64,000 nucleotides of DNA from NCBI GenBank assembly GCA_050309605.1, contig JBNRMN010000067.1, positions 128,001-192,000 on the forward strand, in the 5' to 3' direction. Shown one piece after another: positions 36,001 to 39,000 of this stretch. The first letter of the stretch is position 1, and each line of letters starts with the position of its first letter. This stretch comes from Anaerohalosphaeraceae bacterium. Its GTDB lineage: Bacteria > Planctomycetota > Phycisphaerae > Sedimentisphaerales > Anaerohalosphaeraceae. A program made the position numbers.

Positions 36001-39000
36001 ATTATCGGACGTTCAAGGGACTGGTCGGGCCGTTCGCGATTACGCTGCTGGCGATTGTGCTGATTTTGCGGCAGCCGGACTTGGGGACGGTGATGCTGCT
36101 GATGCCGATCTTGTTTGCGATGCTGTTCGTGGCCGGGGCGCGGGTCAAGCATCTGTTGTTCATTATAATGATGGCGGCGCTGGCGGCGCCGGTCTTGTGG
36201 AATTTTATGCACAGTTACCAGCGAATGCGGATTGCGTCGGTGGCACTGCAGAATGAACGGATTTTTGAAGCGGTGCGGTCGCGTCCTCGGCTGGCCAATT
36301 ATCTGGTGGGCGACGCCGAGCGGCTGCGGACGTGGCGGCGGGACGAGGGCTACCACCTGCTGCACTCCAAACAGGCCATTGCGTCCGGCGGTCTGTGGGG
36401 GTATGGGCTGGGCAAAGGGCCGTACATACGCTACGATTACCTGCCCGAACGGCACAACGACTTTATTTTCGCGGCCATTGCCCATCAATTGGGCCTGGGC
36501 GGGTGTGTGGTGGTCTTGCTGCTGTATGCGGTGATTATTGCCACGGCGATGGAGATTGCATGGCTGAATACCGATGCGTTTGGTCGGCTTGTGGCCGCCG
36601 GCATCGGGGCGATGTTTGCGGTGGAGGTGTTGGTCAATATCAATATGACGCTGGGGCTGATGCCGATTACAGGATTGACGCTGCCGCTGTTGAGCTACGG
36701 CGGCTCGAGTATGGTCGTGCATATGATCGCTATTGGGCTGCTCAATAATATCGGACGCGACCGGCCGTTCTCCGTGGCCAAAAAGCCGTTTGAGTTTCAA
36801 AATTAGAGGTCAGAAGACACCAGCGCGGCACACCAGCGCGCACAACAGCGCGGCGGCGCAAGGGCGCGGTACAATAGCGCGGCGGCGCGAGCCGCCCGAT
36901 AAGGGGATGCGGGTGTATGGAGCGTTTTGCAAGTCGCCACATAATCCGGCCGCTTGCGCGGCTCGGCTGTTGTACGATGACGCGGCGCAACAGCGCGGCG
37001 GCGCAAGCCGCCCGATACGGGGATGCGGATAAATGGGACGTTTTCCAAGACGCCACAGGATCCGGCCGCTTGCGCGGCTCGGCTATTGTACGATGGCGCG
37101 GCGCAACAGCGCGGCACAATAGCGCGGCGGCGAAAGCCGCCCGATAGGGGGATGCGGATGGATGGGGCGTTTTCCAAGTCGCCACATAATCCGGCCGCTT
37201 GCGCGGCTCGGCTATTGTACGATGACGCGGCGCAACATCGCGGCACAACAGCGCGGCGGCGCGAGCCGCCCGATACGGGGATGCGGATAGATGGAGCGTT
37301 TTGCAAGTCGCCACATAATCCGGCCGCTTGCGCGGCTCGGCTGTTGTGGGTATCGTCATCCGGCCGGTGGTGGGTAGCCGGATGCTGATTTTCAGGCTGA
37401 TAATGGGGGTTGTGAATAAAAATACGACGTAGCAGTACTGAAAAAGGCTGTTTTTTCGGGGTTTTTCAAAATTTTTTGTTCCTTCGGCAATTTTTTCTTG
37501 CAATGCATCGCGTTTTTTAGTATTATCAGCAGAGTACCAAGGAAGCTGAATTTCGGATGGGAGAATCCGGGGCGGTTTCGTGGCACACAGCGCGGCGAGC
37601 CGACAGGTTTGCCCGAAGCGAAAAAATGCGAGCGAGATGCCTTCGAGGCGCGGGGCCTTGAGGGTGATGTAAAATAGAGTAACCGAAGAAAAAGAGAAAG
37701 GGATGGTGTCAAATGAGAAAAGTTCTGTTAAGTTTGCTCGTTATGGCTCTGGCAGTCCCGGCGTTCGCGGCGGTTGAGTTTTCCGCGGTGGACAACGGGG
37801 ATGGAACCGTGTCGGTGGTGATTGACACGGCTGATGTCGTGCGCGGTCTGGCCCTGAAGGTGACCTGCAGCGAAGGCGCTGAGCTGGTCGATCTGGAGCC
37901 GGAAGTCAACGCGGCGTTCAACACGTTCATCGACTTTGCTTTTACGACCGAAGCGGGTGCTCCGGGCACGTATGAAGTCGGCGACGGGCATCCGTTTGCG
38001 CTGGCTGATGAGGCCGGTGTGGCCGCGGCGGGCGCAACCGAGTTCAGCATCAGCATGGGCGTGCTGGATGAGGGCGGCAATCAGGAAGGCTTTGTCTCCG
38101 AAATCGGCGGCGAAGTGCTGATTACCTTCAAGACCGGCGCGGGAATGGTGTGCTTTGAGCTGGATACCCTTCGCGGCGGCGTGGTCGGCGATGAGGCCCT
38201 GACCACCAACCTCGACGATGAAGGCATCTGTGTCGCGGTCACCGATGGCCCGGAATGCTGGAACTACCCGAGGTTTGGCGAAGGCGATGGAAATGGCGAT
38301 GGTGTGATCACTTTTGCGGATTTACAGATATTGATTAATGCGTGGGCACCCAATCCTTACAATCCGTGTGCGGACTTCAACAAGGATGGTGTGGTTACAT
38401 TTGCGGACCTGCAGATTCTCATTAATAACTGGCCGCAATAGTATTGAGAAATAGAGTTTTTCATGTTTTAATGATTCACTCTAAATCAGTATAAGATAAA
38501 ATTAACACACACTTTACACCAAGTAAGTTAACGTTAACGTGAGTTTTGTTCGAACAAAAACAACAACAAGTTTTTCGAAAGGGGAACGATGATGAAGAAG
38601 TTAATGGTTTTGAGTTTGGTTTTGGCAGTTGGTTCGATGGCGACAGCAGGTTTGTCTCTGACACCGTCGGAGCCACTCTTGTCTGGGACTTTGTCGATAG
38701 TCTTTGAGAAAACTGAAGCCGGTAACTTGGAAGGTTACGACTTGATCCTTCGAGTAGTCAGTGGCTCAGTCGTTTTCGGCGATGCATCATTAAGTGAAAA
38801 AGGTAATTGGATGGTTGCTCCTGCTTTTGTAGCCGGCGATCAACTGCGCATTTCAGCAGGGGCCTTCCCGGGTTTTGGTTTTTTAGGTCTGACCGAAGCT
38901 GATTCAATTTTGACCGTCGATTATGCTGGTGAAGAAGGTTCTGTAATTGAACTTTGGTCAGTAGCTACGACCATCGGTGGCGTTGACTATAACCAAACCA

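Follow-up and report, generated by a model that had tools for sequence, protein, structure and literature searches.

A putative two-tier cohesin–dockerin surface display system with a strain-variable adaptor–anchor pair in an Anaerohalosphaeraceae bacterium

Among the closest described systems are ScaC/ScaH and ScaE of R. flavefaciens (PDB 5lxv, 8ajy, 2zf9), in which, as in the locus analysed here, an adaptor made of a single cohesin plus a dockerin is accompanied by a single-cohesin surface anchor that carries a sorting signal. The available text of PMC12270676 credits R. flavefaciens FD-1 with over 200 dockerins, a very large repertoire, as here, and describes group-2 truncated dockerins (PDB 9gvb) that resemble many of the present modules in being about 40 aa long with one calcium loop; these natural single-repeat dockerins bind one cohesin 2:1. 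Only five such sequences are given for R. flavefaciens against about 64 here; they are stabilised by a helix-4/Phe29 clasp, whereas disulfides are the presumed staple here, and their partner is the anchor, whereas here it would be the adaptor. The present anchor differs from ScaE in ending in PEP-CTERM rather than LPXTG; sortase, SLH and a few other anchoring modules, but not PEP-CTERM, are listed in the available text of a 2025 review (PMC12484212). In further contrast to R. flavefaciens, no multi-cohesin primary scaffoldin was found here, and the adaptor–anchor pair is polymorphic between strains.

Two reports already in print concern Phycisphaerae. The "planctosome" of freshwater Nemodlikiaceae, of the same class, is a hypothetical non-cellulosomal cohesin–dockerin complex with anchor and adaptor tiers, its parts in the available text being a 2,210-aa LTD-containing anchor, a Doc-HYR-Coh adaptor and peptidase cargo (PMC6461901); the profile of the adaptor cohesin described below (Coh1) matches none of 149 genomes of the phylum outside the order. 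Limihaloglobus sulfuriphilus, of the same order, has a Coh2-Doc1-Coh1 protein and non-cellulolytic cargo (PMC11557425, available text). Its likeness to the protein encoded at 9682–11040 of the window (the whole 64,000-nucleotide stretch of contig JBNRMN010000067.1 analysed here) is one of layout, not established orthology. The same text counts 13 dockerin proteins and names no adaptor–anchor operon, against up to at least 119 profile matches per genome here. A literature search, with subscription papers and supplements such as the PMC11557425 tables outside its scope, yielded no description linking cohesins or dockerins with PEP-CTERM or exosortase, and no paper describing an adaptor–anchor operon or a dockerin/anchor swap.

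The adaptor gene, the anchor gene and further cohesin candidates

The locus comprises the following features, positions being those of the window.

37498..37526, + strand: promoter-like site upstream of the adaptor gene (consensus match only; 5 sites in the region against 1.5 expected in shuffles)
37713..38441, + strand: adaptor gene g02014, 242 aa, with signal peptide (37713–37769), cohesin fold and two-repeat dockerin (ORF, Pfam, model)
37770..38246, + strand: Coh1, the conserved adaptor cohesin domain and presumed cargo-dockerin receptor (fold and profile)
38256..38438, + strand: adaptor dockerin, symmetric, strain-variable and low in GC (48%) (Pfam and comparison)
38492..38626, + strand: conserved junction of spacer motif, ribosome-binding site and start of the anchor signal peptide (DNA comparison and shared motif)
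38589..39086, + strand: anchor gene, 165 aa, with signal peptide, cohesin fold (38649–39020) and PEP-CTERM tail (39021–39083) (model; TIGR02595 over cut-off)
39148..39161, + strand: terminator-like hairpin closing the two-gene unit (sequence scan)

By sequence prediction a promoter-like site precedes the two genes and a terminator-like hairpin follows them, and a hairpin with a U-run lies downstream of most of 30 anchors inspected. The dockerin of g02014 scores 37.8 bits on Pfam Dockerin_1 (cut-off 22.9) and 30 bits on the GC-type dockerin domain NF041540 of NCBIfam (cut-off 29), a cut-off passed at only two places in the genome; residues 184–242 of its model match dockerin chains 2ozn_B and 2ccl_B. 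The genome-wide survey's note had reported a model pLDDT of 92 and cohesins as top structural matches, and both were reproduced: the AF2 model has a pLDDT of 92.7, its N-terminal domain is predicted to form the cohesin beta-sandwich, Foldseek gives 10 matches at E ≤ 0.001 with 5lxv on top, and the best 13 VIA matches are all cohesins (1ohz_A at Z 9.4, with rmsd 3.0 over 121 aligned residues; the highest non-cohesin reaches Z 8.1).

The anchor (model pLDDT 86.8) is likewise predicted to form a cohesin beta-sandwich and lies closer to solved cohesins than g02014 does: Foldseek gives 24 matches at E ≤ 0.001, all cohesins among the matches listed, to rank 35, and cohesins fill the best 13 VIA places (Z 11.6, with rmsd 3.5 over 128 aligned residues; the highest non-cohesin reaches Z 9.9). 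Beta-sandwiches such as the cohesin fold are common, and the margin over non-cohesin ones is just 1.3–1.7 Z units, which counts against the two-tier reading advanced below; the modelled structure is that of one anchor, 38589–39086, whose relatives are a median 23% identical. The cohesins of adaptor and anchor have no mutual profile similarity (0.18%). With its signal peptide, PEP motif, transmembrane helix and basic tail, the anchor has the features of an exosortase substrate, and the genome holds two exosortases (PF09721) and 34 PEP-CTERM matches over cut-off.

Matches to the Coh1 profile occur in 51 of 61 genomes of the order and in 51 of 70 of the family (41 of 46 of high quality), and with g02014 as a single query in 23 of 61, figures that replace the 24 of 25 order genomes given earlier; in 10 of the 61 cargo is present with the adaptor unmatched, again a point against two tiers. 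Of 116 adaptor ORFs examined, a few of them partial duplicates, those that were truncated (10), short of room (5) or fused (5) were set aside, and a PEP-CTERM gene, mostly of 150–200 aa, lies directly 3' of 74 of the 96 evaluable ones; at the other 22, an adjacent anchor is absent, which also tells against two tiers, though several of these ORFs are inner members of tandem arrays. An adaptor-type cohesin itself ends in PEP-CTERM in 5 ORFs and in 8 of 134 aligned homologues, and these fusions would show the adaptor–anchor chain in collapsed form.

The claim that g02014 is the only cohesin is therefore refuted by the adjoining anchor gene, and probably also by a further gene:

9682..11040, − strand: candidate cohesin–dockerin–cohesin protein, 452 aa, with anchor-type beta domains (10567–10986, 9892–10329), a cargo-type two-repeat dockerin (10375–10554) and an acidic helical tail (profile homology)

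This protein matches the anchor-core HMM at E 6.2e-10 (in hhalign, domain 1 reaches 95.9% and domain 2 76%), and an HMM of anchor cores from which the window anchor and its closest relatives were left out matches it at E 6.5e-6, in two places flanking the internal dockerin. Its family (76 homologues; 16 of 61 order genomes with one query) conserves both anchor-type domains, and its top Atlas match, at a score of 0.84, is a cluster that is 85% Pfam cohesin (Atlas scores of 0.84–0.86 being taken as leads only). It is probably the third cohesin-bearing protein in the window.

Pfam PF00963 has no match in the genome at E ≤ 1, and Pfam cohesin occurs neither in 120 anchor homologues nor in the 25 families listed for 134 adaptor homologues; since none of the three cohesin-like genes matches Pfam cohesin, more may be hidden. 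Our own cohesin profiles, of low sensitivity (a left-out anchor scored E 0.38), found only these three genes in the genome. They gave no further match in 42 ORFs picked at PEP-CTERM matches (some in the wrong frame); a Pfam scan of 19 PEP-CTERM proteins gave no cohesin, and a search with the candidate C34:235087-235722 matched only itself. Against solved structures, the anchor profile showed no link to cohesins and that of the 452-aa family matched with its dockerin part only. By PF00963 and these low-sensitivity profiles, no multi-cohesin primary scaffoldin was found beyond the two-cohesin candidate. The earlier description of a cellulosome-like, scaffoldin-less system remains the best reading as to the adaptor and, as far as tested, holds for the lack of a large multi-cohesin scaffoldin; it overlooked the putative PEP-CTERM cohesin anchor directly downstream.

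Two classes of dockerin

A single-repeat dockerin HMM of our own, built from 97 regex seeds, was run on 33,950 six-frame ORFs of the genome (3.4 Mb, 97 contigs) and matched 113 ORFs at E ≤ 0.01 and 115 at E ≤ 0.1, with one match among reversed-sequence decoys. The working set consists of 117 ORFs (matches at E ≤ 0.3 plus one picked by eye), or 4.2% of about 2806 roughly counted genes. The module lies within 60 residues of the stop in 96 of the 117; a crude signal-peptide test is positive in 94 of the 110 ORFs with a complete start, the background rate being 503 of 1993 ORFs, and 11 of the 117 are contig-edge fragments. The survey's picture of about 115 exported proteins (4% of the proteome), with 95 modules C-terminal, 90 signal-like N-termini and about 10 edge fragments, is thereby upheld, the ORF count because the repeat HMM, the decoys, the C-terminal placement and the signal-peptide test agree with it. 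Its division into 72 single and 4 double motifs is not; we count 64 single and 53 double (13 reassigned by eye). Nor does Pfam detect 6 and miss 109, for 18 of 123 candidates pass the PF00404 (Dockerin_1) cut-off, all of them two-repeat, leaving about 99 missed. The window offers an example of cargo:

29093..30028, − strand: choice-of-anchor-M domain protein with C-terminal two-repeat dockerin (profile matches)

The duplicated calcium loop-helix of a type I-like dockerin is found in g02014 and in the two-repeat cargo that passes PF00404; 64 of 117 modules have a single repeat, and none of these exceeds that cut-off. Of 40 single tails, 5 match NF041540 weakly. A profile built from 40 such tails matches all 61 order genomes, 13 to at least 119 times per genome, and its best PDB matches are dockerins (2y3n, E 1.5e-6).

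Positions on the recognition helix (17, 20, 21) are numbered here by the usual dockerin convention. Ala17 with Trp20 marks 46 of 55 single cargo repeats against 2 of 65 adaptor repeats. Of five recognition positions, adaptor repeats agree at 3.8 within a protein and at 0.78 between genomes, cargo doubles giving 1.0; of 15 helix positions, the two repeats share a median of 11 in adaptors against 5 in cargo doubles, and adaptor repeats of different genomes share 4.5. The adaptor dockerin is thus a separate, internally symmetric class from the cargo dockerins. Symmetric repeats underlie dual-mode cohesin binding (PMC12484212, available text). The adaptor dockerin of the window keeps Trp20. Because it scores 26 bits on the cargo HMM, cross-binding is possible, a further point against two tiers.

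Within the cargo class, 59 of 64 single-repeat modules have a Cys at loop position 6. An upstream Cys is present in 62 of 63 modules with that residue against 16 of 48 without it, and a terminal Cys in 29 of 31 modules with a Cys just after the conserved Trp against 0 of 17 without it; from this paired occurrence we infer two disulfides in the Cys-stapled modules. Single-repeat modules sit mostly on LamG/Ig proteins and two-repeat modules more on enzymes. In a Pfam scan of 80 of the 117 cargo proteins, which took in 40 of the 64 singles, 40 of the 53 doubles and the best five families of each protein, our own tally finds a catalytic domain in 4 of 40 singles against 19 of 40 doubles; LamG with no catalytic domain beside it occurs in 20 of 40 against 2 of 40. 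The families seen are PL1, PL11, chondroitinase B, GH2, GH16, GH43, GH76, CotH kinases, peptidases and LamG. A cellulosome is defined by dockerin-borne cellulases of families GH48, GH9 and GH5, none of which is among the best five families of these 80 proteins; the system resembles two-tier cellulosome attachment but by its cargo is no cellulosome.

Mosaic DNA at the adaptor–anchor locus

In close strains the dockerin and the anchor cohesin are replaced between flanks that are about 88–98% identical. Compared by BLASTN with a locus of the same genus (L001), the window is 82% identical up to 38248, after which the dockerin is unalignable; the junction (38492–38626) is 91.9% identical, the anchor core again unalignable, and 39019–39086 91% identical. 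In 18 close pairs with cohesin DNA identity of 71–94%, the anchor cores are 51–65% identical (random about 45–50) and the PEP tails 72–98%, and the junction is 92–98% identical in the 8 best pairs and 63–81% in the rest. Both variable segments have a GC content of 48%, against 61–63% in the flanks.

A contig of metatranscriptome X20 matches 38101–38251 with 5 differences in 151, continues for 213 different letters and rejoins at 38505, with 1 difference in 98 junction bases; a second departs at 38249 into another sequence. Near-identical strains thus carry different dockerins. Two contigs of run X10 join across the anchor core but carry many differences and may come from relatives; RNA contig depth is unsuited to ranking expression, and zero read depth over the anchor core in all four runs used, of 23 listed, was set aside as evidence. 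No silent cassettes that could serve as a source of swaps were found in the 97-contig assembly by BLASTN or the adaptor-dockerin HMM.

A proposed cargo–adaptor–anchor chain and its alternatives

Built on the folds, gene order, two dockerin classes, mosaic DNA and co-variation established here, the reading we favour, with reasonable though far from full confidence, is that the two-gene unit provides two-tier cohesin–dockerin surface display, cargo binding the adaptor and the adaptor an exosortase-sorted anchor, with the dockerin/anchor pair exchanged. Shared conservation pairs the adaptor cohesin with the cargo motif, and shared variability pairs the adaptor dockerin with the anchor, which points to this chain. 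About 115 secreted cargo proteins of one shared dockerin class would bind Coh1, as elimination and matched conservation suggest, the two-repeat cargo, richer in enzymes, 1:1, and cargo with one disulfide-stapled repeat (mostly LamG/Ig/CBM) singly or in pairs. The adaptor dockerin, of another specificity class, would bind the cohesin of the next gene, a better-supported step, and an exosortase, judging from the family, would process the anchor at its PEP-CTERM tail, holding it at the cell surface. Recombination at the conserved flanks may swap the polymorphic pair between strains while the cargo-facing cohesin stays constant; through the intermediate adaptor a lineage could change its surface socket without altering a hundred cargo genes, driven perhaps by kin-private capture of secreted enzymes or by escape from phages or predators. 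Against the chain stands that about 115 cargo genes would share one single-site adaptor.

Such a chain would supply a receptor, open to test, for the many unannotated C-terminal modules found throughout an order of anaerobes that degrade polysaccharides. It would also carry cellulosome-type assembly over to diderm bacteria, with an anchor of the exosortase type, and assign a definite role to a PEP-CTERM protein. The 72 natural adaptor-dockerin/anchor pairs form a library of candidate orthogonal cohesin–dockerin pairs, and the disulfide-stapled half-dockerins, at roughly 40 aa, might serve as compact tags; because alleles are swapped, it can be tested directly whether secreted enzymes are captured in a kin-specific way. 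A tentative extension, which we think doubtful, is that the order-wide cargo dockerin acts as a universal plug that loads any adaptor with enzymes and lectin pairs, neighbours' secreted cargo perhaps included, while the rapidly exchanged allele pair is a private socket that docks loaded adaptors only on cells of the same allele. Lectin pairs would then be two half-dockerins per cohesin, combinatorial from about 60 genes, and the enzyme-display scaffold would contain a self-recognition polymorphism.

That cargo dockerins bind anchor-type cohesins directly, on the PEP-CTERM anchor or the 452-aa protein, leaving g02014 as a side branch or as cargo, would agree with the anchor's greater resemblance to solved cohesins, with the two conserved anchor-type domains of the 452-aa protein and with clostridial single-cohesin anchors that take enzymes directly (OlpA, PDB 3ul4). 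Yet the anchor is replaced among close strains while one cargo profile matches 61 of 61 genomes, and because a hundred cargo genes cannot follow each anchor swap, direct binding is disfavoured; the 452-aa family, moreover, turned up with one query in no more than 16 of 61 genomes, and we give this reading a slim chance. Much the same standing falls to a single promiscuous specificity, by which head-to-tail adaptors and the cohesin–dockerin–cohesin protein would form cargo-decorated branched chains or a mesh from the anchor: tandem adaptor arrays exist, the 452-aa protein's cargo-type dockerin between anchor-type domains could branch the structure, and the window adaptor dockerin has the cargo-like traits given above, but the cargo signature is missing in 63 of 65 adaptor dockerins, whose variation does not follow that of the cohesin in the same protein (rho 0.045). 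A little less improbable, though still unlikely, is that only two-repeat dockerins use the adaptor and that the Cys-stapled tails with one repeat, instead of being cohesin ligands, act as a sorting signal or as a dimerisation or stability module. The singles are indeed a distinct class by their loop Cys (59 of 64) and their LamG-rich cargo, no single passes the Pfam cut-off, and some engineered half-dockerins do not bind (PMC12270676, available text); on the other side, the Ala17, Trp20 and Leu21 face is common to singles and doubles and most conserved in singles, the best PDB matches of their profile are dockerins, and the natural single-repeat dockerins of the same source bind cohesin.

The partnership of adaptor dockerin and anchor, which the cargo–adaptor–anchor chain assumes, has its own alternative, namely that the two are non-binding neighbours under separate diversifying pressure, such as phage or predator recognition, and co-vary by linkage. 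The low GC of both segments is what one imported block would give, and the anchor diverges faster than the dockerin: it may fall to 29–30% identity while the dockerin stays 58–68% alike, which also weighs against two tiers. However, the junction of about 130 bp, near-identical in kin, should allow the two to recombine apart, yet dockerin and anchor types still correspond in different genera; a change in one dockerin repeat goes with a change in the other, and the partners are one cohesin fold and one dockerin. We regard plain linkage as very improbable, and since the conserved junction separates the two segments, selection appears to keep them matched.

The co-variation itself was measured at 72 loci, where the dockerin–anchor partial rho is 0.195 controlling for the adaptor cohesin (reached by 0 of 999 permutations) and the cohesin–anchor value 0.03, statistics that linkage of adjacent segments and kinship among loci inflate. 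For the nearest anchor, the dockerin ranks a median 2nd and the cohesin 14th. The window anchor is closest to that of L138, of another genus (anchor 46%, dockerin 60%), whereas in L001, of the same genus, the cohesin is 89% identical, the dockerin 24% and the anchor 22%. Among distant adaptors, 10 of the 36 pairs whose dockerins are similar have anchors at least 35% identical, against 7 of the 2144 whose dockerins are dissimilar.

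Sequences flanking the adaptor gene

The adaptor gene (g02014, encoding the cohesin domain Coh1 and a two-repeat dockerin) is flanked by two sequence features:

36865–37347: GC-rich 129-bp unit repeated about 3.9 times, between a membrane gene and the adaptor
about 38505–38590: conserved spacer motif, ACACACAC-TTCAC...GTTAACGTTAAC...GTTCGAAC, 5′ of the ribosome-binding site of the anchor gene

The spacer motif precedes the anchor ribosome-binding site at many loci of the family. It may control the adaptor:anchor ratio, as a site of regulation or RNA processing, or else be a recombination anchor. 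The 129-bp unit has 79 matches on 20 contigs of its own genome (BLASTN), and the array is REP- or MITE-like; the membrane gene beside it is, from its sequence, of the rod-shape type.

Variation at the adaptor locus

Among the 15 adaptor loci set aside as cut or lacking room for a downstream gene, contigs end within or just past the adaptor dockerin in 13 (raw count; L011, L012, L021, L022, L084, L089, L091, L101, L122, L129, L134, L135, and L139), as strain-variable cassettes would cause; the remaining two stop at the locus edge. At least two adaptor genes occur in tandem at L031/L033, L144, L153, L158, L159, L160, and L161, and in some of these arrays every adaptor has its own anchor; at L138, a second, short adaptor-like ORF has the same dockerin type as the first. 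The extreme C-terminus of a 3297-aa open frame (L030/L094, G006:C47) is an adaptor-type cohesin, apparently a third mode of Coh1 display.

Alternative tails and candidate anchors

In the genome containing the window (G000), a dockerin-tailed gene adjoins 13 of the 42 ORFs picked at PEP-CTERM matches, some of them wrong-frame, which suggests sister proteins bearing alternative tails. One such pair in the window, a candidate anchor and a further tail are:

28329–29054 (−): PEP-CTERM gene, adjoining dockerin-tailed 29093–30028 (−)
G000:C34:235087–235722: PEP-CTERM protein L258, its stop abutting the gene for a 2511-aa two-repeat-dockerin protein
9685–9843 (−): tail of the cohesin-dockerin-cohesin protein, helical, acidic and conserved (ExLExIW...EWxEF)

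L258, for which a search found no relatives, may be a dedicated cohesin-like anchor. The acidic tail resembles, by eye, an additional docking or sorting module.
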